From: an uncultured cyanobacterium
GTDB lineage: Bacteria > Cyanobacteriota > Cyanobacteriia > Cyanobacteriales > Cyanobacteriaceae
Length of the DNA: 64,000 nucleotides
Reading direction: 5' to 3'
Assembly (NCBI GenBank): GCA_963710605.1
Contig: CAVQBA010000006.1
Location: 32,001 to 96,000, forward strand
The position numbers and the translations under genes were made by a program. Below, in pieces: positions 5,641-48,221 of the stretch. The notes below the pieces were generated by a model that saw nothing but the letters and a program-made list of their open reading frames with translations, was not told where the DNA came from and did no database searches. Position 1 is the stretch's first letter; the number at the start of each line of letters is the position of its first letter.

Positions 5641-5693
5641 CGAACAAGACTTATAGCATCATCAGTTTGTTAAAATCCAAACATTAATATTAT

Positions 5694-5885
5694 TCAACTG
5701 ATTGCATCAATAACTTGTTTTACTATTTTAGGATGAAGTATTTTTTTGCCATGAAAAGGAATAACAACTCTAATATTTTCTTTCTGGTATATGCGATGAC
5801 TTCCCTGACTTCTAATAAGAGTAAAATTAGCATCTAATAATAATTTTTCTGCTTCTTTTGCATTTAATCTCGGTAATTTAGGCAA
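5694..5885 (-). CDS. hicA: HicA-family toxin (mRNA interferase)
   Basis: 63 aa with RSQGSH..Y and V.IP.HG motifs. Overlaps the upstream hicB stop. Confidence 0.9.
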   Translation of the reverse strand: MPKLPRLNAKEAEKLLLDANFTLIRSQGSHRIYQKENIRVVIPFHGKKILHPKIVKQVIDAIS

Positions 5886-6111
5886 CTGATACCTCCATAC
5901 TTACCGTAGAAATTTCCTTAGTCAATAATAATTGTCTTTCTTCCTCGTTTAAAGTGGAGATATATAACTCTATTGCCTCTTGAATATTAGTTTTAATTTC
6001 ATCTAACGAATCACCCTGACTTTGGCATCCTTCTAGTTGGGGGCAATATGCGTAATATCCATATTCATCTTTTTCGATGATGACAGTTACATGGTAGGAG
6101 TTATTGCTCAT
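5878..6111 (-). CDS. hicB: HicB-family antitoxin, short form without DNA-binding domain
   Basis: Y.AYCPQLEGCQSQGDSLDE..NIQEAIELY motif. Lies upstream of hicA (hicBA order). Confidence 0.9.
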   Translation of the reverse strand: MSNNSYHVTVIIEKDEYGYYAYCPQLEGCQSQGDSLDEIKTNIQEAIELYISTLNEEERQLLLTKEISTVSMEVSVA

Positions 6112-6175
6112 TTTAATTTCGTATAAACCATCAAATTTTAACTACTATCATAATTTTAATCTTGATTGCCAAAAC

Positions 6176-6222
6176 GTCGATCGTTCTCAGCACAATTTAT
6201 AATGTAACGACACAAAGACGAT
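6176..6222. repeat. 47-bp direct repeat, right copy
   Basis: GTCGATCGTTCTCAGCACAATTTATAATGTAACGACACAAAGACGAT versus the left copy GACGATCTTTCTCACCACACCTTATAATTTAACGAGATAAAGACGAT. Confidence 0.85.
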
Positions 6223-6294
6223 TTTTACTTATTAAAAATAAACATCGATATCACTAGGCGAAAGCTCAAAAGATAAAGAAGATAAAATATGTTA

Positions 6295-6585
6295 TTATCT
6301 TGGTGCTTTTTTCCATCCTGCATTAATAGCTTCTTGCTCACTACAAAACCATTTTTCTCCATGTTCGGACTGTATTCTTGTCTTCTCATAATCTTTTTGT
6401 CCAGGAACATGATAAATTTTATTACCACTATTAATTGATATATTACCTTTGATTTTGCAGGTTGAATTGAGGTTACTATTTGGAGAATTAGGAATATTTT
6501 CTGAGACAGGAGGAAGGTTACGCTCTTTGATAGTAATGAAATAACCAATACCGAAGATTATTAATGTAAATAGCAATTTTTTCAT
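6295..6585 (-). CDS. Small exported protein with CxIKGNI...IYH.PG...WFCSE.EA..AGW domain (ExoI/thermonuclease-associated C-terminal type)
   Basis: Hydrophobic N-terminus followed by the recognisable IKGN/WFCSE domain. Confidence 0.75.
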   Translation of the reverse strand: MKKLLFTLIIFGIGYFITIKERNLPPVSENIPNSPNSNLNSTCKIKGNISINSGNKIYHVPGQKDYEKTRIQSEHGEKWFCSEQEAINAGWKKAPR

Positions 6586-6820
6586 GTAATTATTTGTAAT
6601 TATAATAAATTAACGATCGATATTCTTAAGCCAAGTTTTCTTATTTGCTAAATATCATTTTGATGTCCATCTTTTAAATCAATCAATTAGTTTATTTTGT
6701 TACACATCATTCTAATCGATTATTTTAGTTTATTCGATCGCTCTCAAATTACGTTAAACTAGTAGATTAAACTACCCCACAAAACAAAAGCCAACATTTT
6801 ATAACGTTAGTGATTACTCG

Positions 6821-9800
6821 ATGAAAAGCCTATTTTTAGAAAGATTAAATAGTCCACAACGTCCCGTGTTAGTATTGGATGGGGCAATGGGAACAAATTT
6901 ACAAGTGCAAAACCTTACCGCTGAAGACTTTGGCGGAGCAGAATATGAAGGTTGTAACGAATATTTAGTCCATACTAAACCAGAAGCCGTAGAAATTGTC
7001 CATAGAGGCTTTCTGGAGGCGGGAGCGGATGTCATTGAAACCGATACCTTTGGTGGCACACCCTTAGTCTTAGCCGAATATGATTTAGCAGACAAATCTT
7101 ACTACCTCAATAAAACTGCCGCCGAGTTAGCCAAAAAAGTAGCTCAAGAATTCTCCACACCCGAAAAACCCCGTTTCGTGGCAGGAAGTATAGGACCTGG
7201 TACTAAATTACCAACTTTAGGACATATTGATTACGATCGTCTTAAAGATGCTTACGTAACTCAAGTAAACGGCTTATACGACGGTGGTGTAGATTTATTC
7301 TTAGTGGAAACCTGTCAAGATGTTTTACAAATAAAAGCCGTCTTAAACGCCATCGAAGAAGTATTTACGGAGAAAGGAAAAAGACTCCCTTTGATGGTAT
7401 CAGTAACCATAGAAGACTTTGGCACAATGTTAGTCGGTACAGAAATTAACGCCGTTGTTGCTATCCTCGAACCTTATCCGATCGATATATTAGGCTTAAA
7501 CTGTGCGACTGGTCCGGATTTGATGAAGCCTCATATCAAATATCTCAGTGAAAATTCTCCCTTCATCGTTTCTTGTGTACCCAATGCAGGTTTACCTGAA
7601 AACATTGGCGGACAAGCCCACTACAAATTAACACCGATCGAATTGAAAATGGCATTGATGCACTTCGTTGAAGACTTAGGAGTGCAAATTATTGGTGGTT
7701 GTTGCGGTACAGACCAGCTCATATCAAAGCTTTAGCCGAGATTACGACAACTCTAACCCCCAAGCAAAGAGAATATAATTATGAGCCTTCAGCCGCTTCA
7801 ATTTACAGCACAACTACTTATACTCAAGACAATTCTTTCCTCATTATTGGTGAAAGATTAAATGCCAGTGGTTCAAAAAAATGTCGTACTCTTCTTAATG
7901 AAGAAGATTGGGATGGTTTAATTTCTCTAGCAAAAAATCAAGTCAAAGAAGGTGCGCACGTCTTAGATGTCAACGTCGATTATGTTGGGCGTGATGGTGT
8001 CAAAGATATGCACGAGTTAGCTTCTCGTTTGGTCAACAACGTTACCTTACCCTTGATGTTAGATTCCACTGAATGGCAAAAAATGGAAGCAGGATTAAAA
8101 GTAGCTGGTGGTAAATGTATCCTTAATTCTACTAACTATGAAGACGGGGAAGAGAGGTTTTTTAAAGTACTTCAATTAGCCAAAAAATACGGTGCAGGAG
8201 TCGTGATCGGGACGATCGATGAGGAGGGAATGGCTCGGACAGCCGAACAGAAATTTGCGATCGCTAAACGTGCCTATGAGGATGCGAAAAAATTTGGTCT
8301 TCCTCCTTATGAATTATTTTATGATCCTTTAGCACTACCTATTTCAACTGGGATTGAAGAAGATCGAGAAAACGGAAAAGCAACAGTAGAAGCAATCAAA
8401 CGTATTCGAGAAGAGTTACCTGAATGTCATATTCTCCTTGGTATTTCTAATATCTCTTTTGGTTTGAATCCTGCCTCTCGTCAAGTATTGAATTCGATCT
8501 TTTTACATGAATGTATGCAAGTAGGTTTGGATGGAGCGATCGTTTCACCTAATAAAATATTACCATTAGCGAAGATTGATGAAGAGCCGTTAAAAGTATG
8601 TCTTGATTTGATTTACGATCGACGAGAATTCAATGATAATATTTGTAGTTATGATCCCCTAATTAAATTAACTACTTTATACGAAGGTAAAACCACTAAA
8701 AGTAACAAGAAAAATGTAGCCGATTTACCGATCGAAGAAAGACTCAAACAACATATCATTGAAGGAGAAAGAATAGGTTTAGAAGATGCTTTAAATATCG
8801 CCTTAGAAAGTTATCCACCATTAGATGTGATCAATATCTATTTATTAGACGGCATGAAAGTTGTTGGTGAATTATTTGGTAACGGACAAATGCAATTACC
8901 TTTTGTTTTACAGTCAGCCCAAACTATGAAAGCGGCGGTGGCTTATCTCGAACCTTTTATGGATAAAGACGAAGCCGATGATAGCGGAAAAGGTAAGTTT
9001 TTAATCGCTACAGTTAAAGGAGATGTCCACGATATTGGTAAAAATTTAGTCGATATTATTCTCTCTAATAATGGCTATAAAGTTATTAATTTAGGTATCA
9101 AACAACCTGTCGAAAATATTCTTAAAGCCTACCATGAACATCAACCAGATTGTATTGCCATGAGTGGTTTATTAGTCAAATCTACTGCTTTTATGAAAGA
9201 TAACCTAGATACCTTTAACAAAGAAGGTATAAACGTTCCCGTCATTCTAGGTGGTGCGGCACTTACTCCCAAATTTGTTCATGGTGATTGTCAAGATGTT
9301 TATCAAGGTAAGGTAGTTTACGGTAAAGATGCTTTTGCTGATTTGAATTTTATGGACAAATTAATGCCCGCTAAAAAATCAGATCAATGGAATGATGTTA
9401 GTGGTTTTTTAGGCGAATTTTTAGAGCAAAATGAATACTTTGCAGGTAGAGCTAAAAATGAAGAAAATGGCGATAATAATAAAGAAGAAAAAGAAGTAAA
9501 AAATAAAGAACCAGAAGTAATAGATACTCGCCGTAGTGAAGCTGTAGATATTAATATAAAACGTCCAACACCTCCTTTTTGGGGTACTAAAATATTATCA
9601 CCAGAAGATTTTGATTTAGACGAACTTTTTTGGTATTTAGACTTACAAGCACTTTTTGCAGGGCAATGGCAATTTCGTAAACCTCAAGGGCAACCAAGAG
9701 AAGAATATAACGAATTTTTAGCTGAAAAAGTACACCCTATTTTAGATGAGTGGAAAGCTAAAGTTAAAGCCGAAAATCTATTACATCCCACATTAATTTA

Positions 9801-10371
9801 TGGTTATTTTCCTTGTCAATCTGAAGGAAATACTTTGTATATTTATAACCCCGAAAAACCAGAGGATAAAGAGATTGTTGCTCAATTTGACTTCCCCCGT
9901 CAAAAATCGGGTAAACGTTTGTGTATAGCCGACTTTTTTGCCCCTACAGACTCAGATACGATCGATGTCTTCCCGATGCAAGCCGTAACGGTGGGAGAAG
10001 TTGCGACTGAATATGCCCAAAAACTATTTGCGGCTGATGAATATACCAATTACCTTTATTATCACGGTATGGCGGTACAAACAGCCGAAGCGATGGCAGA
10101 ATGGTGTCATGCAAGGATAAGACGAGAGTTAGGTTATGGTGATTCTGAGCCCGATAATATTCGGGAAATGTTCCAACAACGCTATCAAGGCTCACGTTAT
10201 AGTTTTGGTTATCCTGCTTGTCCGAATATGCTAGATCAGTATATACAATTAGATTTATTGGATACTAAACGCATTGGTATGTATATGGATGAGAGTGAGC
10301 AAATATATCCCGAGCAATCGACAAGTGCTATTATTTGTTATCATCCCGTAGCGAAATATTTTAGTGCTTAA
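6821..10371 (+). CDS. metH: Cobalamin-dependent methionine synthase, split by a 1-nt frameshift near 7709
   Basis: ORF 6821-7735 has the Hcy-binding domain (DGAMGT, GLNCA, GGCCGT). ORF 7699-10371 has the folate, B12-binding (DVHDIGKN) and activation domains. One base is missing in GGT AC_ AGA CCA GCT CAT. Confidence 0.93.
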
Positions 10372-10384
10372 ATTTAGTGTAAAG

Positions 10385-10403
10385 AGTGAGCTTTTTGCTC
10401 ACT
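10385..10403 (+). terminator. Stem-loop after metH
   Basis: AGTGAGC-ttttt-GCTCACT perfect 7-bp stem followed by TTGTTATTTT. Confidence 0.55.
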
Positions 10404-10413
10404 TTGTTATTTT

Positions 10414-10695
10414 ATGAATATACAATTTGAATGGGATGAAAATAAGCGTTACAGCAATATTCGTAAACATGGAATCGATTTTATTGATGCTTACAAAATA
10501 TTTGATTACGATACAGTAATAATAGAAGACGATCGTTTTAATTATGGCGAACAAAGACTTATCGCTATTGGTTTATTAAAGGGTACAATAATCGTCGTTG
10601 TTTACACCGAAAAAGAAAATAGTATTAGAATAATATCAGCACGAAAAGGGACAAAAAATGAACAACAAATCTACTTCCAAGAAATCTATGACTGA
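10414..10695 (+). CDS. brnT: BrnT-family toxin
   Basis: FEWDENK..SNIRKHGIDF, YGEQR..IG, RIISARK motifs. Confidence 0.92.
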   Translation: MNIQFEWDENKRYSNIRKHGIDFIDAYKIFDYDTVIIEDDRFNYGEQRLIAIGLLKGTIIVVVYTEKENSIRIISARKGTKNEQQIYFQEIYD

Positions 10696-10930
10696 TTGGG
10701 AAAGATTAGATTCTATGACTGATGAAGATATAGACTTTTCCGATTGCCCTGAAATTACACCTGAAATGACAAAAAGTAAAACTATTAGACGTGGTTTAAA
10801 AGATTCTTCACACAAACAGCTACTAACTTTGTATTTAGATGAGGAAATAGTAACTTGGTATCAAAAAAATAAAGAATCTCATCAAGTAGAAATTAATAAT
10901 TTATTAAAAGATTATATTAAAAATCATTAA
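10658..10930 (+). CDS. brnA: BrnA-family antitoxin
   Basis: TDWERL..MTDEDIDFSDCPE, L.LD.EI..W and INNLL..Y. Overlaps the end of brnT. Confidence 0.88.
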   Translation: MNNKSTSKKSMTDWERLDSMTDEDIDFSDCPEITPEMTKSKTIRRGLKDSSHKQLLTLYLDEEIVTWYQKNKESHQVEINNLLKDYIKNH

Positions 10931-10931
10931 T

Positions 10932-11081
10932 CTTGATTATCAAAGTAGTCGATCGTTTTTAAAAAATACTTTATTTGTTCCTCATACAGAAGAAGAAACT
11001 CATCTTCTGGCATCACTAATTGAGTTTGTTGGGGTTTTAGTCGAGTCTTATGAAGATAAAAATATTTTTGAGTTGATGTAA
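10932..11081 (+). pseudogene. Remnant of a HigA-like antitoxin N-terminal domain
   Basis: Frame without ATG: LDYQSSRSFLKNTLFVPHTEEETHLLASLIEFVGVLVESYEDKNIFELM*. It matches the recalled family pattern FVPHTEEEY...ETHPLASL.E..GVL.E.YE with the middle segment missing. Confidence 0.55.
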
Positions 11082-11203
11082 GTTGAGTCTAAAACGATCG
11101 TCTATTATAATTTTGAGTGCGAAAAAATTTTACTGCTTAAGGTTTTTTTGGTCTTGCTCACTCTATAATTAGCTTAACTAAAATATGGCATTAATAGAAC
11201 ATT

Positions 11204-12514
11204 ATGAGAATAACAAAAATTTCTATAGATGGATTATTTGGGATTTTTAACCATGAAATTCGTCTAAATGTGGAAGAAAGGATAACTATTATTCATGGTG
11301 CTAATGGTGTAGGGAAAACAATTATTCTTACAATGCTCAATGATTTTTTTCATTCTCGTTATTCCATTTTTAGAAAAACACCATTTGAAAAATTTGTAAT
11401 TTATTTTGATAACGCTCATAATATTGAAATTGTAAAAAAGAATCATATTAACGACAAAAAAACGACAAGTCATAGGTATGATATCAAATTCTTATTAAAA
11501 GAAAATGATTTAGTTATTAAAGACTTTATTCCTAGAATAGAAGATAATGAAGAAAAAATAGAAGATTATGATTCTCAAATTTCTTGGTATAGTCAGATAA
11601 TAAGACGGAAAATATCTATGGATATAAATGAAATAGAAGAAGACTCAAATAAAAATGATGATGATATCTGTGAATGGTTAGAGCAAATAACAAATAATAT
11701 TAATATCCACTTAATAAATTCTCAAAGATTAATCAATATAGAAAAAATCAATAAAAAGAAGAAATCGTACTCTACTGTTTCTAATTATTCAGAAAAATTA
11801 GCTAACTTAATGGATCGAAAATTTACTGAATATGGTTCTATTTCACAATCTTTAGAAAGAACTTTTCCATCGAGAGTTTTACAATTGGTACAAGTAGGAA
11901 ACACTGATTTACAAAGAGAAAATCTATCTGAACAACTAAATCATCTGCAAAAACAGAGAAATCGCTTAATAAATGTTGGTTTGTTGAACAAAGAAGAAGA
12001 TAGCGATTTTAATATACAGTCTAATACCATTGATAATACCGATGAAAGCACAAAAATGTTTTTATCTGTATATGTTGAAGATGTAGAAAAAAAGTTAAAT
12101 GTATTTAAAGATATAGCTGATAAAATAGAATTGTTAAAAAAAATTATTGATAAAAAATTTGCTTATTCTTCTAAACAAATTAATTTTGACAAAGAAAGGG
12201 GTTTTATTTTTACAACGAATAAAGATTTATCTTCTCCTTCAGAAAATGAAAATAAGAAAATTTCGCCGACAGATTTATCATCAGGAGAACAGCACGAATT
12301 AATCATGCTTTATGATTTATTATTTAATGTAAAACCTAATTCTTTAGTCTTAATTGACGAACCCGAATTATCCCTTCATGTAAGTTGGCTAGTCGATTTT
12401 TTAACTGATTTAGAAAGTATAATTAAAATTGCCGATTTAGATATTTTAATGGCGACTCATTCACCAGATTTGATAAACGATCGCTGGGATTTAACGGTTG
12501 AATTAAAGAAATAG
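11204..12514 (+). CDS. ABC-type (AAA_15/AAA_21) ATPase, PARIS AriA-like
   Basis: Walker A GANGVGKT, signature LSSGEQ, Walker B LIDEPE, H-loop ATHSP. No transmembrane partner. Very AT-rich. Confidence 0.85.
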   Translation: MRITKISIDGLFGIFNHEIRLNVEERITIIHGANGVGKTIILTMLNDFFHSRYSIFRKTPFEKFVIYFDNAHNIEIVKKNHINDKKTTSHRYDIKFLLKENDLVIKDFIPRIEDNEEKIEDYDSQISWYSQIIRRKISMDINEIEEDSNKNDDDICEWLEQITNNINIHLINSQRLINIEKINKKKKSYSTVSNYSEKLANLMDRKFTEYGSISQSLERTFPSRVLQLVQVGNTDLQRENLSEQLNHLQKQRNRLINVGLLNKEEDSDFNIQSNTIDNTDESTKMFLSVYVEDVEKKLNVFKDIADKIELLKKIIDKKFAYSSKQINFDKERGFIFTTNKDLSSPSENENKKISPTDLSSGEQHELIMLYDLLFNVKPNSLVLIDEPELSLHVSWLVDFLTDLESIIKIADLDILMATHSPDLINDRWDLTVELKK

Positions 12515-12518
12515 AATA

Positions 12519-13376
12519 ATGCGAGAATATCTAACAGTCGATCGTATTGCTAACACTATCCGACAACAAAAAACAAATTTTCAAGGTAGTTTTATATTAG
12601 TCGAGGGTGATTCTGATAAAAAAGTATATCAAAATTTTGTTGACCAATTAAATTGTCGTTTTGAAATCTGTAAAGGAAAACCATCTAGTAAACAAAGAGT
12701 AATTCAAGTATTAGATATTTTAAATAACGATAATATACAAGGAATAATAGGTATCGTTGATGCTGATTTCGATCGTTTAGAAAATACTCAATATAACCAC
12801 AATAATTTATTTTTAACGGATTATCATGATTTGGAAATTATGTTAATTCGATCGCCAGCTTTAAATAAATTACTTCAAGAATTTGCCTCAGAAGATAAGC
12901 TTAATAAATTAAAATTAGATGTTAGACAAGTTTTATTAAATTTAAGTTGTGATTTGGGTTATTTACGTTGGATTTCTAGAGAAGATAACTTGAATCTCAG
13001 TTTTAATGATTTGAAGTACCAAAATTTTTTAGATACAAAAAAATTAATTGTTGATTGTAAAAAATTAATTAAAACAATTATAGATAAAACTCAAAACTAT
13101 TCGATTGTTCAACAAGATTTACTAGTGAAAATTAAGAATAAAAAAGATAAGCTTCATTATAAAGAGCAGATATGTTGTGGTCATGACTTAATTAATATTT
13201 TATCAATTTTGTTATGTAAAAAAATTGGCTCTAATAATACAAATCAAGTTAACAAAGAGAATCTAGAACGTAGTTTAAGATTAGCTTATGAAAGTATCTA
13301 TTTTCAGCAAACTAATCTTTATCTTCAGGTAATTAAATGGCAAGATCAGAATCACATTACTATGTTTGTGAAATAA
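12519..13376 (+). CDS. DUF4435 / TOPRIM-fold protein, PARIS AriB-like
   Basis: ILVEGDSD and IVDADFD TOPRIM acidic motifs, DLE and GHD motifs. Starts 4 nt after the ATPase stop. Confidence 0.82.
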   Translation: MREYLTVDRIANTIRQQKTNFQGSFILVEGDSDKKVYQNFVDQLNCRFEICKGKPSSKQRVIQVLDILNNDNIQGIIGIVDADFDRLENTQYNHNNLFLTDYHDLEIMLIRSPALNKLLQEFASEDKLNKLKLDVRQVLLNLSCDLGYLRWISREDNLNLSFNDLKYQNFLDTKKLIVDCKKLIKTIIDKTQNYSIVQQDLLVKIKNKKDKLHYKEQICCGHDLINILSILLCKKIGSNNTNQVNKENLERSLRLAYESIYFQQTNLYLQVIKWQDQNHITMFVK

Positions 13377-13633
13377 GTAATTATCATAGTTTATGTCACC
13401 TTATCTATCTTTGAAATTTAGAATCATCAAGAGTAAATAAAGAAAAGAGTATAAACAATTAGTCAGTCTTCTATTTTAGAGTCACAAGCTTATACTTGAT
13501 GAACCTATTACGATCGCAGGTAAAAATAGATATGAGACTAAACTATACTTAGAAAAAGATGAAAAGCTAGAAGAATTATAATGAACAATCATTACAACAT
13601 GGTAATTCAATAAAGTGAAGAAGATAATATTAT

Positions 13634-14662
13634 TTATTCATAAAAAGAAGGTAATTGCTTAATTAACTCGTACTCTATCTCCTCTAATTTGGGAACTATA
13701 CCAATTTCTGGATCTTGCAAAATTTGGTTTTTAAATTCAGTTAAATAATCAAGAATATTTTTTCTTAAAATAGGACGAGAATCCGCTACCATATTCTTAT
13801 AATCCCATACATCCCAAGCTACAAAACCGATCGCTAATAAAGGATCTATTAATTTAGCTGTAGTTGATACAGCAACGGAAGTTCCACCTTTAACTGCTAA
13901 TTTACTTCCTGCTTTGAGTGCGATATTACTAAATAATTTGGCACCGATAACTGCTCCAACGATCGTAGTTTCGGTTAACAATGAACTACCTAAACTTTGT
14001 AGTGATAAGCTAGATTTACTATTTCCTGTATTATAAATTAATTGAGCAAGTTCTCCTAAATGGCTATCCCAATCACGATCGTCAATTTTGTAATCGTTTT
14101 TAATATCTGCGAAAACTAAACTAATAGAATTACCATATATTTTACCAGTTCTTTCAATTATTTTTTTAAGATCTTTTTGAGCTGATTTAGTAAATACTAA
14201 TTCCTGAAATTTATCATAAAACTTTCTGGTCAATCTTTTAGCTATTATTTCACTTGAATTGAGATTTTTTTCATCTTCTTTTCTTAATAGTTTTAAGCGT
14301 TTGTCCAATTTGAAACCTACCCAAGAAATTACGCCTCCATATTCGATCGATTTTTGATTGAAAAAACTAAAGTACCAATCTAAAAAATCTTGATCTACAT
14401 TCACCATCAATTCATCAATATAGTCATCTAATTCTTCTGTTGCGAATTCCTCCGCCACAAGAAGACTGTCTTTAATTTTATCAGTTAATGATTTATCTAT
14501 CTTTGCCCAGTCATAATTTTTATCATCTAAAAAAGCTATTTTGTTATTGTTAATTATGTCCGCTACAGCAGGTTTTAAAAATAACAAATGATTATTAAAA
14601 ACTAAAATAATAGTAAGTAATAAGATAGTTAAGTTTTTGGTTAATCGATCGATAATATTCAT
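13634..14662 (-). CDS. Uncharacterised exported/membrane protein, paralog of 14718-15896
   Basis: Hydrophobic N-terminus, FLDWYFSFFNQK motif, Gly/Ala-rich hydrophobic hairpin ending WDVWD. Confidence 0.8.
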   Translation of the reverse strand: MNIIDRLTKNLTILLLTIILVFNNHLLFLKPAVADIINNNKIAFLDDKNYDWAKIDKSLTDKIKDSLLVAEEFATEELDDYIDELMVNVDQDFLDWYFSFFNQKSIEYGGVISWVGFKLDKRLKLLRKEDEKNLNSSEIIAKRLTRKFYDKFQELVFTKSAQKDLKKIIERTGKIYGNSISLVFADIKNDYKIDDRDWDSHLGELAQLIYNTGNSKSSLSLQSLGSSLLTETTIVGAVIGAKLFSNIALKAGSKLAVKGGTSVAVSTTAKLIDPLLAIGFVAWDVWDYKNMVADSRPILRKNILDYLTEFKNQILQDPEIGIVPKLEEIEYELIKQLPSFYE

Positions 14663-14717
14663 AAAAAATAATTAAATTAAAGATTTTAAAAATAGTTAAG
14701 CATGGTAAAAGTTTTAA

Positions 14718-15896
14718 TTAAATCAAACTTGAAACAATATTTTCCTGAATTCGATCGATAATAATTATAATTCCTGTCTCAGGATTATTAAGTAACGAAT
14801 CTTTTACTTCTTCTAAATAACCAATCAAATTTTCTTTTAAAATCGGTTTTTCAATTTGAGCGGTATGATTAATATCCCAAATATCCCATAAAATAATACC
14901 AACTCCTACACTTGCATCTAAAAAAGTTGAGCCAATTTTACCGGCTAAAACTCCACCTGTTTTAGTTGCCACTTTTGCCCCCGCTTTTCCTGCTAATTTA
15001 GCCACTACTTTACTGCTGACTGTCGGTATAAGTTTGACGATTAAAGGTTTAACAGCTACATAAGCACCACCACCGACAAAAACTTTTAAAGGTGTATTAG
15101 AAATGTTCCCTTCTGTATTGTAAATACTAACGGCAATATCATTAAGATAATTATCCCAATCTGTTTGAGGAATTTGATAGTTGATGGCAATGTCACTAAT
15201 ATTTGTTTCAACTTGCTTAAGATAATATCTAACTATTTGATTGGTTATTCTTTCTAATTGCAATTGAGCTATTTGGGGGCGTAATACTCTTTTACTAAAT
15301 TCTAACTGAAAATCTTGAGTAATTGACTCGGCTATTTGCTCATTTATACCTTTATTATTCAGTTTAAATAGCTTAAAACTTCCAGCTTTCAAGGCATTAA
15401 AAAAACCTTTATATTCTATTTGTTTTTGATTAAAATAACCAAAGTACCAATCTAAAAAATTAGGATCGATTCTAGTAGCTAAATCATCAACCCAAATTTG
15501 TAATTGCTCGTCTGCATATTCATTAGTATTTTTATAAGCTAAATCTAAACTATCTTTAATTGCAACATCAATTTTATTCCACTCAATAACTGTTTTTTCA
15601 ATCGTAATTTCTTTATTAGAAGTTGGTTTGTTACTAAAAGATTGAGCAATAATTCCTTGCCCGATTAAGGGAATAATAACAATAATAATTACTAATACCC
15701 ATAGATAAGGTGCAAAAGATTTTAACAAATTAGCGATCGAATTTAACAAGCGACTCCAAGAATTTATTTTTTGGGTAACATCGTTATCAGTCTTAGCTTC
15801 TAATGTTTTATTTACCTGCTTATCTTCTTTCTTGTCTTTCTCAATACTATTATCTTCTAACGTCTGTTTTTTTGGTTCGGTGTTTTCTTGAGTCAT
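14718..15896 (-). CDS. Uncharacterised membrane protein, paralog of 13634-14662
   Basis: TM helix LWVLVIIIVIIPLIG, FLDWYFGYFNQK motif, KLAGKAGAKVATKTGG...WDIWD region. Confidence 0.8.
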   Translation of the reverse strand: MTQENTEPKKQTLEDNSIEKDKKEDKQVNKTLEAKTDNDVTQKINSWSRLLNSIANLLKSFAPYLWVLVIIIVIIPLIGQGIIAQSFSNKPTSNKEITIEKTVIEWNKIDVAIKDSLDLAYKNTNEYADEQLQIWVDDLATRIDPNFLDWYFGYFNQKQIEYKGFFNALKAGSFKLFKLNNKGINEQIAESITQDFQLEFSKRVLRPQIAQLQLERITNQIVRYYLKQVETNISDIAINYQIPQTDWDNYLNDIAVSIYNTEGNISNTPLKVFVGGGAYVAVKPLIVKLIPTVSSKVVAKLAGKAGAKVATKTGGVLAGKIGSTFLDASVGVGIILWDIWDINHTAQIEKPILKENLIGYLEEVKDSLLNNPETGIIIIIDRIQENIVSSLI

Positions 15897-16136
15897 CTAT
15901 CTATGGGTTAGTTAGTGAAATACTTTAATCAGTTTAATATTATTGTTTAGTCTAATCTTTTAAGCATAAATGAATAACAAAGTACTGTAGTAATGACTTT
16001 AGTCATTGGATATGACTGAGTATATGTATATCTTGATTTTATTATAAGTCATCAAACAAATTTAATATCACTATCTAAAGCTCGATTTAATCTAAAATTA
16101 TCTTGAGGTAAAAAAACAAATAGTCGATCACTAAAA

Positions 16137-16856
16137 ATGCTAACAAAAATAGATTCAAATATTTGGATTGCACAACAACAATTAAAATACTTAGGGTTAG
16201 AAGTCGGGACAAAAATGACTATCATTCGTCTAGAGAATGATGAATTAGTAGTTATTTCTCCTATCCAAATTAATGATACTATTCAAACTCAATTGAATGA
16301 AATTGGATTAGTAAAACATATTATTGCACCTAATTTATTTCATTATTTATTTGTTTCTGATTGGAAAAAACTTTTTCCTAATGCGATGGTTTGGGCAAGT
16401 CCAGATTTGAAAGCTAAAAAACCAAATATATCGATCGATAAAAACCTTAATTATCAAGGTGGTAAATTTAATAATAGTCTTGAATATCTTTTTTTTGATG
16501 GATTTAAAACAACTACTTTTAACGGTTTTGAATTATTAAATGAATTTGTTTTTTTTCATTCTTTAACTAAGACTCTTATATTGACAGACACAGCTTTTAA
16601 TATTGATGATAGTTTTTCGCCTTTTATACAATTTGTAGCGAGAATTACTGGTGATTTTAATCATCTTAAACCATCGCTTTTAGAAAAAATTGCTACTAGC
16701 GATAAACAGAAAGTCAAAACTTCAGTGACTAAAATTCTAGAATGGGATTTTGAAAGGGTAATTATGGCACATGGCTCAATTATTGAATCAAATGGAAAAC
16801 AAAAGTTTAAACAAGGATATGAGCAGTTTCTTAATTGTACTTTGAATAATATGTAG
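16137..16856 (+). CDS. DUF4336-family protein (metallo-beta-lactamase-like)
   Basis: TKMTIIRL, HIIAPNLFH, EFVFFH..TLILTD and WDFERVIMAHG motifs. Confidence 0.85.
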   Translation: MLTKIDSNIWIAQQQLKYLGLEVGTKMTIIRLENDELVVISPIQINDTIQTQLNEIGLVKHIIAPNLFHYLFVSDWKKLFPNAMVWASPDLKAKKPNISIDKNLNYQGGKFNNSLEYLFFDGFKTTTFNGFELLNEFVFFHSLTKTLILTDTAFNIDDSFSPFIQFVARITGDFNHLKPSLLEKIATSDKQKVKTSVTKILEWDFERVIMAHGSIIESNGKQKFKQGYEQFLNCTLNNM

Positions 16857-17059
16857 TTAATTAGTAACTATAAAATTAGATAGATTAGATTTGCAATAAT
16901 TTTTTAGCAGACATACACAAAATGTTTAATTAGTCAAGCAATATATGATGAGTAAGTTTATTGATCTGATCGATCGTCTGCCCTTATTCTGCTTCGCACG
17001 ATCGTCTGTTATTATCATGAAAGTGAAATATTTTAGTGTTAAAACAAGAACAAGACAAA

Positions 17060-17725
17060 ATGACAACTTATTTAGTGACAGGGGCAAATAGAGGTATAGG
17101 TTTAGAATATTGTCGTCAACTAAAACAACTTGGAAATCAAGTAATTGCAGTTTGTCGAAGCACTTCAGAAGAATTAGATAGTTTGGGAGTAACAGTTATA
17201 TCAGGCATAGAAATTACTGAGTATCAAACGATCGCTGATTTGGTTGTAAAATTAGATGGTGAAACAATTGATGTTTTAATTAACAACGCTGGAATAGTTA
17301 ATGCTGATAGCTTCGATTATTTAAATTTTGATAGTATTCGTCAGCAATTTGAAATAAATGCGATCGGTACACTCAAGATAACTAAAGCATTATTACCTAA
17401 CCTCCCAAAAGGTGGAAAAGTAATTATTATGACTAGTCGTATGGGTTCAATCGAAGATAATACATCTGGTGGTTATTATGGCTATCGTCTGAGCAAAGCC
17501 GCAGTTTCTATGGCAGGTAAATGTTTATCAATCGATCTCAAACCCGAAGAGATTGCTGTGGCGATTCTTCATCCTGGATTAGTTAAAACTCGGATGACAG
17601 GCTTTACTGATAATGGTATTACAACAGAACAATCTGTCACAGGATTGTTATCGAGAATTGATGAACTTACTTTGGAAAATACAGGAACATTTTGGCATTC
17701 TAATGGAGAAGTTTTGCCTTGGTAA
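17060..17725 (+). CDS. Short-chain dehydrogenase/reductase (CsgA-like)
   Basis: TGANRGIG, NNAG and YxxSK motifs. I prefer the ATG at 17060 over the GTG at 17036. Confidence 0.9.
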   Translation: MTTYLVTGANRGIGLEYCRQLKQLGNQVIAVCRSTSEELDSLGVTVISGIEITEYQTIADLVVKLDGETIDVLINNAGIVNADSFDYLNFDSIRQQFEINAIGTLKITKALLPNLPKGGKVIIMTSRMGSIEDNTSGGYYGYRLSKAAVSMAGKCLSIDLKPEEIAVAILHPGLVKTRMTGFTDNGITTEQSVTGLLSRIDELTLENTGTFWHSNGEVLPW

Positions 17726-17956
17726 TAAGGGAAGGGAAAATTAACACATTTATGTTTGACTCAGTTGTCATGAATATAAATAAATAATTGAGCGTAGTGT
17801 GATAATGTCTCTAAAGAACGAATATATCGATCGCTAAAACAATACCAGAGTTTAGGTACTTGTTGGTTGTCTTCTAAATTTCGATTGATAAGAAGTAAAT
17901 TGCATTGATAAGAAGTAACAAGTTAATCAAAACCTGTGATGAATTAGTTCGGCTAC

Positions 17957-17976
17957 GCAATTATTCGGTGAGAATT
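17957..17976. repeat. Small dispersed repeat (copy 2, inverted)
   Basis: GCAATTATTCGGTGAGAATT is the exact reverse complement of 3608-3627. Confidence 0.75.
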
Positions 17977-17980
17977 ATAG

Positions 17981-18574
17981 TTATTTAAACGGTTGCCCCC
18001 ACCATTGCCATGATTCTTTATTAAAAGGCGATCGCCATTTTAAGATTAATTCTTTTTCTAACTTTTGGCGTAACTTTCTAGATTCTGGAACACTCCACCA
18101 AAAAGCACTTCTAATCAAAACAGGTAAATCGTACTTTCGATGTAATTCTAAATAGTGTTGAATATAGTTTTTACAATCGTGATTAATCCATCTTTGCCCG
18201 GGCGATCGTTTTGTTTCTCCTACGTATAATAATAAAGAAGAATGAGTATCTAAAATAAAGTATAAACAACTTTCACTTAAGTTGTAATTAGGTAAATCAT
18301 AAAACTGATCGCTATGAGTTTCTTGTTCAAAAGGATTAAATAATTCTACTTCGCAAATAGATGTTTTTTCACTGATTAAATCACCTTGTTGTATCTGATT
18401 ATTTATTTGAGCTTGTTGATAATTGTAAATACTTTTTTTCCAGTTTTCTAAAAAACTTTTACTCATAGCAATATCAGGAGTAGTTGTTTTTTTTGATAAC
18501 TGATAAGTAGCTGAGGGTTCAAACAAGCTCAACTGTTTTGGTGAAGATGAAGGACGATAATCAGAATAATTCAA
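17981..18574 (-). CDS. GIY-YIG nuclease-family protein (cyanobacterial type)
   Basis: CLYFILD...LLYVGET, HDCK.Y and E.ELI.KW.SPFNKE motifs. The start codon (TTG) is uncertain. Confidence 0.8.
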   Translation of the reverse strand: MNYSDYRPSSSPKQLSLFEPSATYQLSKKTTTPDIAMSKSFLENWKKSIYNYQQAQINNQIQQGDLISEKTSICEVELFNPFEQETHSDQFYDLPNYNLSESCLYFILDTHSSLLLYVGETKRSPGQRWINHDCKNYIQHYLELHRKYDLPVLIRSAFWWSVPESRKLRQKLEKELILKWRSPFNKESWQWWGQPFK

Positions 18575-18748
18575 TGGTTTTGAGCAAATAAATAATTTCG
18601 ATTCAAGCGATAAGTCTGTAGGGGTTTATGGCATAAACCCAAAATTAAATTTGTAGTTTTGTTTGTCAGGTTTCGCACTTTATTTTATATATTACTTATA
18701 TCCTAACGTTTTCTAAGCTTCAATCCAACCGACAATTTACGATCGCCA

Positions 18749-20401
18749 TTAATACCCGATCGCACTTCCATCACCACGAGGATCTGTACCACCATATCTT
18801 ACATCAGTGTCTCGATCGATTATAATCATCCCAGCGTGTCCCATCACATCAGTAAAATTAGGTTGTATATTAAGTTGATGCCCTCGTCTTTCTAACTCAT
18901 TTAAAACAGATTGCTCGACTCTTCCTTCTATTTTAAGTTCATTTGTTTCCGAGCCAAGATTTCGCCCTTGAATCCAACGAGGAGATTCGATCGCATCTTG
19001 TGCTGAAAAACCAAAATCAACTACACGAGTAACCAGTGCCGCTTGGGTTTGAGGTTGCCCGTCTCCGCCCATCGTGCCGTAAACTAAATAAGGCTTACTT
19101 TGTTTTAATAACATCGCTGGATTAAGAGTATGATAAGTACGCTTGTATGGTTCTAGATAATTAACGTGATTTGAATCAAGGGAAAAAAACTTACCTCGAT
19201 TTTGAAGCAATACACCCGTATTTTTAGCCACAATACCAGAGCCAAAAGCATCGGCAATACTATGAATATAAGATACAGCGTTACCATCTTTATCCACCAC
19301 ACCCATCCAAGCAGTATCAGATTCGAGACTAGTTGTTGAATCTGGAAATTGAGTAACCTGCATCTGGATTTGTTGAGCGAGATTGAGATTATGAGTCTTT
19401 GATAATAATTGAGTTAGGGGAATATTAACAAAATCAGGATCACTAAGCCAACGATTACGATCGTTAAATGCTAATTTAATTGCTTCGACGATTAGATGAT
19501 AATAATCTGCTGTTCCTTCTCCTAACTCCTTCACGTTAAAATTATTAAGAATACTTAAAATTTGTAGCGATGCCATTCCTTGAGTCGGAGGTGGTAGATT
19601 ATAGGCTTGATAACCACGATAATCGACAGAGATTGGCTCAACCCATTTAGCTTGATGCCTAGCAAAATCATCGAAAGTTAGTAATCCATCGTTAGATTGC
19701 AAATCTTGAATAATTCTTTTAGCTGTTTCTCCTTGATAAAATTCATCTGCACCATACTCAGCAATTCTAGTTAATGTTTGGGCTAAATCTGTTTGATATA
19801 GTATTTCTCCATATTGATAAGGCTTACCGTTAGGTTTAAAAAAAATCGAGTTAAAACCTTGAAAACGTTTTAGATTACCAAATTCTCGATCGAGTGAATT
19901 AATGTTTCTTTCTAGCCATTGATGTTGATGAGTAGAAATAGGAAAACCATTTTCGGCATATTCAATCGCAGGAGTGAGTAAATCTTGCCACTTACTCGTA
20001 CCATTCATTTGCTCTTGAGAATAGTGATAAGCCTCTTGCCAACCAGCTACTGCACCCGGTACTGTATTTGCCGCTAAATAACCTCGATCGGGTATTGTAT
20101 CGTACCCTTTAGAGCGATAAAAGTTGCTGGTGACGTTTTTTCCTGCCGCCCCCGTTGATTCTAAACCCTTTATTTGTTTTGTCTTAGCACTGTATATCAA
20201 CCAAAAATTATCGCCACCAATTGTCCCCATTTGTGGATACACTACCGAAAGTGCGGTCGAACCTGCGATCGTTGCTTCTACAGCATTACAGCCTTGATTT
20301 AAAGCAGTTAGAGCCACTTGTGAAGCTAAATAGTTAGGAGATGAAACCATCCCTTTTGTTGACATTACTGTGGTATTCGATCTACCAAAAAACTCATTCA
20401 T
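18749..20401 (-). CDS. Gamma-glutamyltransferase-family Ntn hydrolase, HpxW (oxamate amidohydrolase)-like
   Basis: VVYPQM..IGGDNFW, autocleavage region DTAWMGVVD, HTLNPA, GTMGGDGQPQTQ. Last gene of the urate cluster. Confidence 0.85.
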   Translation of the reverse strand: MNEFFGRSNTTVMSTKGMVSSPNYLASQVALTALNQGCNAVEATIAGSTALSVVYPQMGTIGGDNFWLIYSAKTKQIKGLESTGAAGKNVTSNFYRSKGYDTIPDRGYLAANTVPGAVAGWQEAYHYSQEQMNGTSKWQDLLTPAIEYAENGFPISTHQHQWLERNINSLDREFGNLKRFQGFNSIFFKPNGKPYQYGEILYQTDLAQTLTRIAEYGADEFYQGETAKRIIQDLQSNDGLLTFDDFARHQAKWVEPISVDYRGYQAYNLPPPTQGMASLQILSILNNFNVKELGEGTADYYHLIVEAIKLAFNDRNRWLSDPDFVNIPLTQLLSKTHNLNLAQQIQMQVTQFPDSTTSLESDTAWMGVVDKDGNAVSYIHSIADAFGSGIVAKNTGVLLQNRGKFFSLDSNHVNYLEPYKRTYHTLNPAMLLKQSKPYLVYGTMGGDGQPQTQAALVTRVVDFGFSAQDAIESPRWIQGRNLGSETNELKIEGRVEQSVLNELERRGHQLNIQPNFTDVMGHAGMIIIDRDTDVRYGGTDPRGDGSAIGY

Positions 20402-46784: not shown

Positions 46785-48221
46785 ATGGATGAGTTACAGT
46801 GGCAAGAAGAAGACTGGGATAATACTATTTTAGATTTTGCCAACTTACAAGGCGAAATTAATTATCAAAAAGCACAAGAATCTTTACAAAATTTACTCAC
46901 TAATTTAGATTTAAAAGAAGAAGAGAAAACAGGGTTAGAAAAACAAATCAATCACCTCGAACAGATGTTAAATAATCTGGAAAACTCTGTAATTCAAATA
47001 GCCGCTTTTGGGATGGTAGGCAAAGGTAAATCTAGTGTTTTAAATGCTTTAATTGGTCAAGATTTGTTTATAACCGGACCATTACATGGTGTCACTCGTG
47101 AGATAGATAAAGGTAATTGGCATTTAGGTAAACATGATTTTGCTAATAGTCAATTTCCAGTTCAAAAATTAATTAAAGCCACTGAAAATGTTCAAATACA
47201 ATTACTAGATACCCCAGGGATTGATGAGATTGATGGCGAAAAATACGAAAAGTTAGCTCATGAAATTGCCCAAAATGTTGATTTAATTTTATTTGTGATA
47301 GCAGGAGATATTACACGAGTAGAATATCAAGCACTTTGCCAATTAAGAGAGGTGGGTAAACCGATGTTGTTAATCTTTAATAAAATCGATCAATATCCCA
47401 GTGCCGATCGAGAAGAAATTTATGCGACAATTAGAGACAAAAGGGTAAAAGAATTACTTTCTGCGGATGAGATTGTCATGGTAGCGGCTTCTCCTTTGAT
47501 TACTATTGCTCAAAAAGATGAAGCAGGAAAATTAAATGTGACTCGTCAACGAGGTAAACCGCAAATAGAAGATTTACAACTCAAGATTTTGCAGATTCTC
47601 CATCAAGAAGGTAAATCTTTGGTTGCTCTTAATACGATGTTATCCACAGGAAATATTAATCAAAAACTAGTTGAGCAAAAATTTATTTATCGTTTTGAAG
47701 AAGCCGAAAAAATAATTCAAAAAACAGTGATTACTAAAGCAACTGCGATCGCTTTTAATCCTGTCACGGCGATCGATTTATTTACCGGTGCAATAATCGA
47801 TATAGCGATGATTTTAAGTTTATCTCACCTGTATGGTATTCCCATGACACAATCTAGTGCGGTCAAATTATTACAAAAAATAGCCGTAAGTTTGGGTAGT
47901 CTGACAATTAGTGATATTTTAGTTACCTTTGGTTTAAGTTCGCTTAAAGGGGTATTAGGTTTAGCCACTCCTGCTACAGGTGGATTAGCTGTAGTACCTT
48001 ATTTATCTGTAGCGGTTACACAAGGATTAATCGCTGGATTTTATACTTATACGATCGCTCAAGTTACAAAAACTTATTTAGCCAATGGTGCATCATGGGG
48101 AGAAAATAGTCCTAAAGCTGTGGTAGAAAACATCATCAATTCTTTAGATGAAACTTCAATCATAAACCGTATCAAATGGGAATTAAAAGCCAAATTAGGC
48201 AAACAAATCAAGAATAGATAA
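46785..48221 (+). CDS. Era-like GTP-binding protein with DUF697 C-terminus
   Basis: GMVGKGKSS, DTPG and NKID motifs. Hydrophobic C-terminal NP...D region. Confidence 0.85.
   Translation: MDELQWQEEDWDNTILDFANLQGEINYQKAQESLQNLLTNLDLKEEEKTGLEKQINHLEQMLNNLENSVIQIAAFGMVGKGKSSVLNALIGQDLFITGPLHGVTREIDKGNWHLGKHDFANSQFPVQKLIKATENVQIQLLDTPGIDEIDGEKYEKLAHEIAQNVDLILFVIAGDITRVEYQALCQLREVGKPMLLIFNKIDQYPSADREEIYATIRDKRVKELLSADEIVMVAASPLITIAQKDEAGKLNVTRQRGKPQIEDLQLKILQILHQEGKSLVALNTMLSTGNINQKLVEQKFIYRFEEAEKIIQKTVITKATAIAFNPVTAIDLFTGAIIDIAMILSLSHLYGIPMTQSSAVKLLQKIAVSLGSLTISDILVTFGLSSLKGVLGLATPATGGLAVVPYLSVAVTQGLIAGFYTYTIAQVTKTYLANGASWGENSPKAVVENIINSLDETSIINRIKWELKAKLGKQIKNR

Follow-up and report, generated by a model that had tools for sequence, protein, structure and literature searches.

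Zorya ZorAB, Kiwa KwaA and phage superinfection-exclusion proteins are examples of small membrane-located systems that lack their own nuclease; they occur in defence islands and are thought to act at the envelope or to sense it. The alpha-pore-forming toxins (ClyA; YaxAB/XaxAB; Hbl, Nhe and AhlABC) are tandem all-helical proteins that carry a hydrophobic segment beside a beta-hairpin and assemble into heteromers. PARIS (AriA/AriB) has been shown experimentally to be a defence system (PMC9122126), and class 1 DISARM is canonically encoded by drmD, drmMI, drmA, drmB and drmC (10.1101/2021.12.28.474362). In this study, two adjacent genes, designated A and B, were analyzed in a stretch of 64,000 nucleotides (nt) from an uncultured cyanobacterium of the Cyanobacteriaceae (positions 32,001 to 96,000 of contig CAVQBA010000006.1, assembly GCA_963710605.1), which is hereinafter referred to as the window. 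The pair is a real, conserved and co-inherited two-gene unit of an undescribed family, and at some loci it is inserted in DISARM operons.

The pair resembled PARIS in being a two-gene cassette, in using the same slot between drmMI and drmA (PARIS-like genes were found there in four of nine plasmid loci) and in adjoining a PARIS-like module in the window. The two have no sequence relation, however, and A and B lack the AAA_15/AAA_21 ATPase and Toprim/DUF4435 domains. In addition, PARIS is cytoplasmic, whereas A and B are predicted to be secreted and membrane-anchored, respectively, and a candidate defence role for A/B is suggested by gene context. With the alpha-pore-forming toxins, A and B have in common a tandem arrangement of paralogs (340-400 amino acids, aa), all-helical models, a hairpin next to a hydrophobic stretch and a predicted heteromer, but no profile or fold match was obtained, B is anchored, and the relatives are mostly single chromosomal genes. 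Unlike Zorya and Kiwa, both of which are included in the PADLOC library, A and B matched no PADLOC model, and they appear to form a single-pass and a secreted subunit with no ion-channel-like multi-pass architecture.

A conserved, co-inherited pair of paralogs

An earlier note on this DNA, made from the sequence alone, had described two co-oriented genes 55 nt apart that share colinear blocks. Both open reading frames (ORFs) were present on the minus strand with B upstream of A (Table 1), and every block was visible in their BLASTP alignment (92 of 293 positions identical, 31%; 55% positives; E 3e-46). The blocks include W.KID, FLDWYF(S/G)(F/Y)FNQK.IEY and Y.I...DWD..L, as well as KAG.K.A.K.G, WD(V/I)WD and PIL..N...YL.E.K...L..PE.GI. 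The FLDWYF/FNQK block was also recognizable in the DNA as a 62-nt direct repeat with 81% identity (14334-14395 and 15406-15467). A and B are true paralogs of one uncharacterised family. No terminator-like site was found in the spacer, and its shortness and common strand, together with the gaps seen in other pairs, are consistent with one transcript carrying B and A. A consensus scan upstream of B gave 12 promoter-like sites against a shuffle mean of 17.4 and did not locate a promoter. No tRNA gene was found between positions 1 and 30000 of the window, and no insertion-marking repeat flanked the pair.

Word-indexed searches yielded 22 further relatives of A, at 42-67% identity, and 246 relatives of B, the best 120 of which were 43-80% identical; B orthologs with 45-80% identity occur in many cyanobacteria. 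All named relatives of A or B were cyanobacterial and annotated as hypothetical protein. An exhaustive profile search (E <= 0.001) gave 370 clusters at 50% identity. Gene organization was surveyed with one genome per species: 113 stretches encoded a relative, the best 80 of which were kept as 79 loci, so that 80 loci were available together with the window (individual loci are labelled L001, L002 and so on). All of them came from cyanobacteria or metagenome-assembled genomes (MAGs), and one labelled Acetobacteraceae grouped with Nostoc.

A scan of all ORFs with hidden Markov models (HMMs) of the upstream, B-like type (up-type) and the downstream, A-like type (down-type) identified intact pairs at 13 of the 80 loci (the window, L001-L011 and L014) and decayed pairs at two (the Hormoscilla MAGs L012 and L062), where the fragments scored higher with the down-type HMM. 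A single B-like gene was present at 65 loci, a count that includes six contigs ending less than 1.1 kb after the gene (L016, L041, L043, L048, L052, and L059), where a partner is possible. No locus had a down-type alone (0/80). On the question raised in the earlier note, whether homologs always occur as pairs, the A-type was never seen by itself, and most B-like genes were. In every pair, the anchored type preceded the signal-peptide type on the same strand, and gaps between called ORFs ranged from -4 to 82 nt; three larger overlaps were due to over-extended ORF starts. An ORF at L008 (10805-11203), taken as a family member by BLAST clustering, was dropped since no HMM confirmed it. As for the Hormoscilla MAGs, the down-type of L012 lay in three frame-shifted pieces (8879-9839), L062 had a truncated up-type and a frame-shifted down-type (8231-9389), either of which could be real decay or an assembly error, and a third Hormoscilla locus (L024) carried the up-type only.

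Phylogenetic analysis was performed with IQ-TREE (LG+C20+F+G4) on 53 sequences, comprising all 26 pair members and 27 of the 66 singles picked for spread. The A-type sequences formed one clade (ultrafast bootstrap (UFBoot) 100 / Shimodaira-Hasegawa-like approximate likelihood ratio test (SH-aLRT) 100). The 13 up-types formed another clade together with L059 (98/88), nested among Oscillatorialean singletons, and the same picture emerged from quick trees built on the full 92 rows and on the 53 rows. Singleton relatives resembled B in their variable N-terminal tail, conserved transmembrane (TM) motif and helical body (45-56% identity), but they had no A-type partner and occupied lineage-conserved neighbourhoods, while the up-types of pairs fell in a clade of their own. 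Midpoint rooting placed the long-stemmed A-type clade outside everything else, and a tree forcing all pair members together was not rejected (approximately unbiased test, p-AU 0.129). These trees leave room for one tandem duplication at the root of the pair clade, after which the downstream copy would have changed fast.

The two halves of the pair had sub-groupings in common (the window with L001, L004 with L009, L003 with L005, and L008 with L011); L007 and L014 were joined in the down-type tree, and the same join was weak among the up-types. Distance matrices of up-types and down-types were correlated (Mantel r 0.85), with none of 5000 permutations giving a value as high. The dN/dS ratio (NG86) was 0.11-0.34 in all eight comparisons (0.14-0.22 in the four for B, 0.11-0.34 for A), with dS near 1 in most of them; both genes are under purifying selection. 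Members of the pair clade were found in Geminocystis, Dactylococcopsis, Nostoc, Iningainema, Argonema, Lyngbya, Microcoleus, and Pantanalinema. The singletons largely track the cyanobacterial orders and this clade does not; in addition, Lyngbya sp. PCC 8106 carries both a pair (L007) and a singleton (L053). For these two reasons, the pair was regarded as an accessory unit in its own right, separate from the singleton gene.

None of the tests placed A or B in a described family, and the family is undescribed, which by itself demonstrates no new function. Pfam gave only rows below the cut-off for A and B (ParE_toxin, 15.3 bits with a cut-off of 23; Reoviridae_Vp9, 13.7 bits with a cut-off of 21), and NCBIfam, PADLOC-DB v2.0.0 (E <= 0.1) and PHROGs returned no family for either protein, in agreement with the earlier note, which had recognised no enzyme motif. 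An alignment of 93 diverse relatives was built and used for the profile, the Pfam search and the modelling of B. Among these 93 members, Pfam produced 12 stray single-member rows, with no family matched by more than one member; the sole toxin row was one stray match to CARDS_D3. The 93-member profile searched against all PDB chains gave three unrelated rows (E 0.19-2.4) and no toxin chain at E <= 10. Ten of 12 longer family members that were scanned had no extra domain. As for the other two, P0220 (701 aa) has a C-terminal WD40 beta-propeller (~398-694) after the family domain, a single case that could be a gene-call fusion, and P0152 has an N-terminal region (DUF5678 plus aspartyl protease) that could stem from the merging of an upstream gene. 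None of the best 150 representatives contained two full-length family copies.

A literature search in titles and abstracts (DISARM, drmMI, cyanobacteria, defense islands, transmembrane) found no report on such a pair. From synteny, the ortholog in Anabaena PCC 7120 may be all5075, a gene number on which no literature was found. In the text of a preprint on the YprA helicase (PMC12458937), the terms 'transmembrane' and 'DUF4435' are absent.

Outside the cyanobacteria, a distant singleton was encoded in an unannotated stretch of a Microvirga ossetica plasmid (NZ_CP016617.1; L080, 5851-6921), with 21% identity to B and a family HMM E-value of 3.7e-36. Because of this megaplasmid relative, the family is not strictly cyanobacterial. 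Look-alikes in the ESM Atlas were unnamed clusters only (0.95-0.96), the best named cluster reaching 0.77; the commonest phyla among the unnamed clusters were Pseudomonadota, Cyanobacteriota, and Campylobacterota, and those of Pseudomonadota and Campylobacterota likewise point to a family that extends beyond cyanobacteria.

Predicted topology, fold and A-B contact

Both proteins have an N-terminal hydrophobic segment, as the earlier note had stated (Kyte-Doolittle (KD) maximum 2.80 at residues ~62-84 of B and 2.22 at ~10-29 of A). In B, this segment is preceded by a hydrophilic tail of 60 aa that is poorly conserved across close relatives, and of the 40 up-type sequences, 29 had a hydrophobic core that began beyond residue 45. 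The TM motif P-x-[LI]-W-x-x-V-[IV]-I-V-[VI]-I-I-P-L-I-G-Q was common to up-types and singletons, with W66, V69, V73, P76, and G79 invariant across the 40 up-type sequences. Many up-types and singletons also had a conserved G-Q-x-F-I-A-[KN]-[AS]-F directly after the anchor (~79-88 in B), which fits an [AV]-x-[AS] cleavage pattern as well.

The N-terminus of A comprises R6/K9, a hydrophobic core from L11 to L29 and A32-V33-A34 followed by D35, and it was classified as a type I signal peptide in a rule-based check. All 38 down-type sequences had a hydrophobic core (~15-20 residues) within the first 45 residues, and [AV]-x-A was located 10-36 residues past the core start in 36 of them; a signal-like N-terminus was visible in all 13 down-type locus copies. 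A is predicted from this pattern to carry a Sec signal peptide that is cut by signal peptidase I. Because a long hydrophilic tail that bears no signal is expected to remain in the cytoplasm, and because A carries the signal-peptide pattern, the bodies of both proteins would be extracytoplasmic. We infer that these homologous bodies lie in the periplasm or the thylakoid lumen, with B anchored and A free.

Residues 270-327 of B are rich in V (17%), K (16%), G (16%), and A (14%), and helical hydrophobic moments were modest. This segment is not a classical TM helix because only one 19-residue window reached KD 1.6; by composition, it looks like a surface-seeking or partly inserted stretch, not a membrane-spanning one.

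The AlphaFold2 model of A (20 alignment rows) was all-helical, with a predicted local distance difference test (pLDDT) score of 60.2 and values below 50 in the counterpart of this segment (residues 220-275). The model of B (93 rows) reached a pLDDT of 77.2 and a predicted template modelling (pTM) score of 0.65. It was composed of a long N-terminal helix including the membrane span, a helix bundle (106-253), a beta-hairpin (255-269), a low-confidence stretch (270-327, pLDDT 46-66) and two helices (328-391).

Foldseek searches of both models against PDB, and of the B model against BFVD, gave no match at E <= 0.001. The earlier note had likened the proteins to alpha-pore-forming toxins or to the membrane-binding parts of dynamin-like proteins, and neither likeness was supported by these searches. 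No toxin family was matched, and ClyA appeared in the Foldseek output at E 0.40-1.2 with template modelling (TM) scores of 0.10-0.14, Hbl-B at E 0.53 and AhlB at E 1.4. On the dynamin side, BDLP (E 0.55-0.81, TM score 0.23-0.30), LeoA (E 0.44, 0.16), and the MxB stalk (E 0.87, 0.32) were all non-significant, the Drp1 stalk was also among the rows at noise level, and no GTPase family was found; in Pfam searches, P-loop, Dynamin_N and MMR_HSR1 were absent from A, B and all 93 members. Such Foldseek rows tend to be accounted for by the loose mutual matching of long helical bundles. Judged from the models, the likeness derives solely from long helices plus a hydrophobic stretch, and membership in either group is not supported.

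Prediction of the A-B complex was performed with B 100-392 and A 45-342, from which the anchor and the signal were removed, each with its own ortholog alignment. The interface score ipSAE was 0.81 (0.84, 0.81, and 0.76 in individual runs), the best of three controls scoring 0.00. The runs had at least 63% of contacts in common, and the pLDDT of the partners was at least 62. In calibration, 116 of 157 solved complexes reached the ipSAE mark, as did 2 of 215 mismatched pairs; since custom alignments were used, these rates apply only roughly here. The predicted interface involves residues 202-219 and 276-290 of B and 274-331 of A. These models support binding of A and B to each other.

The drmMI-drmA slot and other gene neighbourhoods

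At three loci (L003, L008, and L011), the pair was located between drmMI and drmA and co-oriented with them; the DISARM genes were confirmed by PADLOC with E-values down to 0. A and B are outside the five canonical DISARM genes, since L003 possessed all five by PADLOC plus the pair as an extra insert (Table 1); drmMI, the two pair genes and drmA follow one another at distances of 53, -4 and 31 nt. L003 was 94% identical in DNA to a plasmid of Scytonema NIES-4073 on both flanks of the slot (6.3 kb on the left, 6.1 kb on the right). Between these flanks was a clean indel, in which 2630 bp with the pair stood in place of 117 bp; the pair behaves as a cassette. Neither a target-site duplication nor an inverted or other repeat was found at the cassette junctions.

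A sample of plasmid-borne DISARM loci was obtained by tblastn with DrmA of L003. Ten were inspected, nine of which, all from Nostocales, had drmMI as well as drmA; the tenth (Synechococcus elongatus) had drmABC only. No member of the A/B family was present in the nine loci. The slot was empty in four of them (Scytonema NIES-4073, Nostoc C057, Calothrix PCC 7716, and C. brevissima NIES-22; gaps of 44-111 nt). In another four (Trichormus variabilis ATCC 29413 plasmid C, N. flagelliforme, Nostoc UHCC 0926, and N. carneum), it contained an AAA_15 ATPase and a 288-aa protein, which is annotated as DUF4435 in the Trichormus record and scored 26.0 and 22.3 bits in two copies, below the Pfam cut-off of 27. 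The remaining locus, on plasmid pNPM2 of Nostoc sp. N6 (L089, 4550-5992), had its slot filled by a protein of 480 aa that matched no Pfam or PHROGs family. At L008 and L011, the slot held the pair together with GmrSD and Uma2, or the pair together with an AAA_35 ATPase. The slot is a swap site, and its other occupants are mostly defence modules. The commonest filler, ATPase plus DUF4435, is the same type of module that adjoins the pair in the window; the window and Trichormus proteins had only Walker-type motifs in common, and they are of the same architecture without being close kin.

DrmA of L003 shared 98% identity with the DrmA of the Scytonema plasmid, whose slot is empty, and only 60% with those of L008 and L011, which were 90% identical to each other. 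Because of the 60% identity, the pair is considered to occupy the same slot in two separate DISARM branches, a distribution that suggests two entries into the slot, the alternative being one old entry with several losses.

Two further observations were made on these operons. The four loci with ATPase and 288-aa genes (L082, 6898-8881, on Trichormus plasmid C; L084; L085; L086) have a PARIS-like module nested in class 1 DISARM, of which no mention was found in the passages of the literature that were consulted. In addition, drmMI was split into two ORFs by a MazF-type gene at L008 (2503-3223) and by a PIN-domain gene at L011 (4553-5137), and in Nostoc C057 it was split by an IS4 transposase (L081, 4927-6294).

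To describe other neighbourhoods, genes within 6 kb were clustered and named by Pfam. Most families near pairs were found in only one to three loci each, and the settings of the individual pairs are given in Table 1. In L009 (2222-3102), the deaminase toxin (Pfam Toxin-deaminase, 76 bits) and the SUKH-family immunity-type gene separate the pair from rbcLXS, and in L004 (4411-5288) they flank the pair on its opposite side. When PADLOC matches (E <= 1e-10) within ~5-6 kb were counted, L009 was omitted because it nearly duplicates L004, and 6 of the 11 pair loci scanned and 19 of 83 proteins were positive; 15 of the 19 belonged to the DISARM islands of L003, L008, and L011.

In the window, the pair does lie beside a defence cluster, as the earlier note had said: a PARIS-like pair (11204..13376) and BrnT/BrnA (10414..10930) adjoin it, so that a small patch of defence-type genes separates metH from the membrane pair. 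The ATPase and DUF4435 genes satisfied the published detection thresholds for PARIS (PMC9122126). Both gene pairs are context, and membership in the A/B unit is not implied. A DUF4336 gene and a short-chain dehydrogenase/reductase (SDR) gene are located on the other side, and the wider stretch is ordinary chromosomal, with metH, ggt, ftsZ, chlI, and pilBTC. A DUF697/dynamin-N-type GTPase was encoded at 46785..48221, 30 kb from the pair. The metH gene was split into overlapping plus-strand ORFs in different frames, one (6821..7735) encoding the homocysteine S-methyltransferase domain (Pfam S-methyl_trans, 272 bits) and the other (7699..10371, TTG start) the rest, an arrangement that may reflect a frameshift, an error in sequencing or a gene that is truly split. 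Furthermore, short repeats on TCGATCGA / CGATCG palindromes recurred in and between genes from 9500 to 18800 (e.g., 14645-14664, 14751-14770, and 16431-16450); we take them to resemble HIP1-type palindromes of cyanobacteria.

Table 1. Positions of the pair, its parts and its neighbours in the window, gene order in the DISARM operon of L003, and settings of the pair at other loci
Locus	Feature	Coordinates	Strand	Description
Window	Gene B (up-type)	14718..15896	minus	392 aa, upstream member; hydrophilic N-tail 1-60, one conserved TM helix, predicted all-helical body of ~290 aa
Window	Gene A (down-type)	13634..14662	minus	342 aa, downstream member; paralog of B, signal-peptide-like N-terminus replaces tail and anchor
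Window	B-A spacer	14663..14717	minus	55 nt, both genes on the same strand
Window	B TM anchor	15645..15713	minus	~residues 62-84, LWVLVIIIVIIPLIGQ...; KD 19-residue maximum 2.80
Window	B Val/Lys/Gly/Ala-rich, moderately hydrophobic segment	14916..15089	minus	Residues 270-327, follows predicted beta-hairpin 255-269
Window	A predicted Sec-type signal peptide	14561..14662	minus	Residues 1-34; sequence pattern, putative cleavage
Window	A counterpart segment	13838..14005	minus	Residues 220-275, Leu/Ser/Ala/Gly-rich, ends before WDVWDY; found by alignment with B
Window	B upstream region, presumed promoter region	15897..16136	minus	Shared with divergent DUF4336 gene 16137..16856 (+)
Window	PARIS-like ATPase	11204..12514	+	Pfam AAA_15 54.2 and AAA_21 48.4 bits; PADLOC AriA 1e-21; convergent with A
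Window	DUF4435 gene	12519..13376	+	Pfam DUF4435 62.9 bits; PADLOC AriB 2e-24
Window	BrnT/BrnA toxin-antitoxin pair	10414..10930	+	Pfam BrnT_toxin 95 bits, BrnA_antitoxin 27.2 bits
L003	drmD	90-2372		Nostoc sp. FACHB-892; one strand for the whole operon
L003	drmMI	2387-6346		
L003	Up-type gene	6400-7767		
L003	Down-type gene	7764-8882		
L003	drmA	8914-12366		
L003	drmB	12363-14237		
L003	drmC	14234-15034		
L003, L008, L011	Pair			Inside class 1 DISARM operon
L004, L009	Pair			Beside deaminase-toxin and SUKH-immunity genes, next to rbcLXS
L005	Pair			Beside PIN/MazE pair
L006	Pair			PIN gene nearby
L010	Pair			Beside antitoxin-like gene and Uma2
L001	Pair			Beside Uma2
L002	Pair			Cas12k fragment and DDE transposase fragment nearby
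L007, L014	Pair			Nothing of defence or toxin-antitoxin kind nearby

Proposed role and alternatives

We propose that tandem duplication of a cyanobacterial membrane-protein gene gave rise to a two-gene cassette that has since been inherited as a unit. In B, the variable N-tail would be cytoplasmic and followed by the single TM helix, with the helical body of ~290 aa beyond the membrane. In A, the tail and anchor would have been replaced by a cleavable Sec signal peptide, and its body would be released into the compartment of the B body, that is, the periplasm or thylakoid lumen. There, A may bind B, with residues 202-219 and the hydrophobic 276-290 of B placed against the C-terminal helices of A. 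The complex would be located on the outer face of the membrane, with its Gly/Ala/Lys-rich stretches on or in the bilayer. From the gene context, we infer that it may be an accessory envelope-level module against phages or other incoming DNA, acting by entry exclusion or by sensing envelope disturbance, and working either by itself (the situation in the window) or as part of a larger system. The probability of this proposal as a whole, including the defence role, is estimated at roughly 0.4. Its structural part, in which an anchored and a secreted paralog act as one unit, is probable when taken alone. A more specific form, in which an extracytoplasmic anti-phage or anti-plasmid module blocks or reports DNA entry and slots into class 1 DISARM by replacing a PARIS-like guard, is tentative and somewhat doubtful.

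The main alternative, only slightly less likely, is a non-defence module for envelope or membrane maintenance. The pair would be a duplicated form of a membrane-associated structural or stress protein, acting for instance in the organisation of the envelope or thylakoids or in handling lipids at the membrane's outer face, and it would merely have landed in variable regions rich in defence and toxin-antitoxin genes. A number of results speak for this reading and weigh against a defence role. The family is widespread, as seen from its 370 clusters and the distant Microvirga singleton, and the single B-like genes that make up 65 of the 80 loci commonly had ordinary, lineage-conserved neighbourhoods. 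Their recurrent neighbours were DUF3318 (26 loci), an unnamed protein of 185-206 aa (22), a phytase-like protein (17), a sugar transferase and a radical-SAM protein (15 each), chlN-type (14) and chlL-type (13) genes, DUF1400 (13), DUF5331 and Transglut_core2/TPR (12 each), and mutL (8); no literature on DUF3318 was found, and none of these families was present near the window pair. Because most relatives are singletons in such housekeeping synteny, the ancestral function would be cellular, and the pair may have kept it. The earlier note had itself named a predominance of housekeeping singletons as what would refute its proposal; singletons do predominate, often in such settings, which counts partly against the proposal, and the pair is nevertheless a separate, co-inherited unit.

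Proximity to defence genes did not set the pairs apart, either. In the same PADLOC scan, 16 singleton loci picked to span the taxonomy were covered and 12 of them were positive (17 of the 150 proteins scanned, out of 151 listed), so that matches were no commoner at pair loci than at singleton loci. Several of the singleton matches were loose (SMC-like, kinase, MotB-like), and clear systems were found at L028, L036, L057, and L078. Defence adjacency alone says little because cyanobacterial genomes are dense in such genes. Eight of the 12 intact pairs outside the window had no recognised defence system directly adjoining, the exceptions being L003, L008, and L011 (DISARM) and L002 (Cas12k fragment). 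Moreover, the three DISARM loci were ascertained via the pair, and since L008 and L011 are close kin, they represent two independent events at most. As seen from the MazF-type and PIN-domain genes and the IS element, the slot and drmMI also accept toxin-antitoxin genes and an insertion sequence, and non-defence cargo can land there. PADLOC and PHROGs gave no match to A or B, no enzymatic or nucleic-acid-binding domain was matched in either protein, and their GC content at third codon positions (GC3 0.20) was host-like, being similar to that of neighbouring genes. A tblastn search with B gave no match in phages, and no homolog was found on cyanobacterial plasmids in the collections searched. 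The structural part is weakened as well: close cousins of true partners also pass the binding prediction, and the predicted interface may be an inherited homo-oligomer interface, A and B being paralogs.

Against a pure maintenance role stand the clean cassette indel inside a tightly packed DISARM operon, its recurrence in two DISARM branches, and the PARIS-like modules, GmrSD and AAA_35 ATPase held by the same slot elsewhere. The patchy, order-crossing distribution of the pair and its ability to coexist with a singleton in one strain are also at odds with it. Of the heteromeric membrane complex in defence that the earlier note considered plausible, the heteromer is predicted by modelling and a defence link has some basis in the three DISARM loci, while enrichment near defence genes was not observed.

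A bipartite alpha-pore-forming toxin, with A and B forming a pore in a competitor's membrane or in the cell's own membrane as an abortive-infection effector, is improbable. Tandem paralogs, one of them predicted to be exported, a predicted heteromer, elongated all-helical models with a beta-hairpin beside a Gly/Ala-rich hydrophobic stretch, and the appearance of ClyA, Hbl-B and AhlB in the Foldseek lists would all fit such a toxin. However, these Foldseek rows were at noise level (E 0.4-1.4), the profile reached no toxin chain in PDB, and the one CARDS_D3 row was stray. The conserved anchor would fix B to the membrane of its producer, the singletons are located among housekeeping genes, and no secretion system or immunity gene was consistently adjacent at pair loci. 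Very improbable is a membrane-remodelling partner of dynamin-like GTPases with bodies like a stalk or paddle, for although the stalks of BDLP, LeoA, Drp1 and MxB gave the highest Foldseek TM scores (up to 0.30-0.32) and a DUF697/dynamin-N-type GTPase gene was found ~1.4 kb upstream of the pair in L002 and also in the window, those rows had E 0.44-0.87 and a probability mostly below 0.5, neither a GTPase domain nor a P-loop was present, the bodies are probably outside the cytoplasm, where GTP is absent, and DUF697 GTPases were also found near the singletons at L020 and L022 without adjoining them and were distant from the pair in the window.

If the pair is an envelope-level defence module as proposed, it would be an extracytoplasmic two-protein system of a new family and the first envelope-located accessory inside DISARM, and DNA-targeting DISARM would gain an envelope-level partner based on a fold for which no relative has been described. 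The drmMI-drmA gap of cyanobacterial DISARM would then be a swap slot that can be mined for unknown cassettes, such as the one encoding the 480-aa protein of L089. Near-identical DISARM operons with and without the pair exist in nature, as represented by L003 and the Scytonema NIES-4073 plasmid. If the pair does not function in defence, the family would still be a widespread cyanobacterial membrane protein family with neither a Pfam model nor a solved or similar structure, and it deserves a name.

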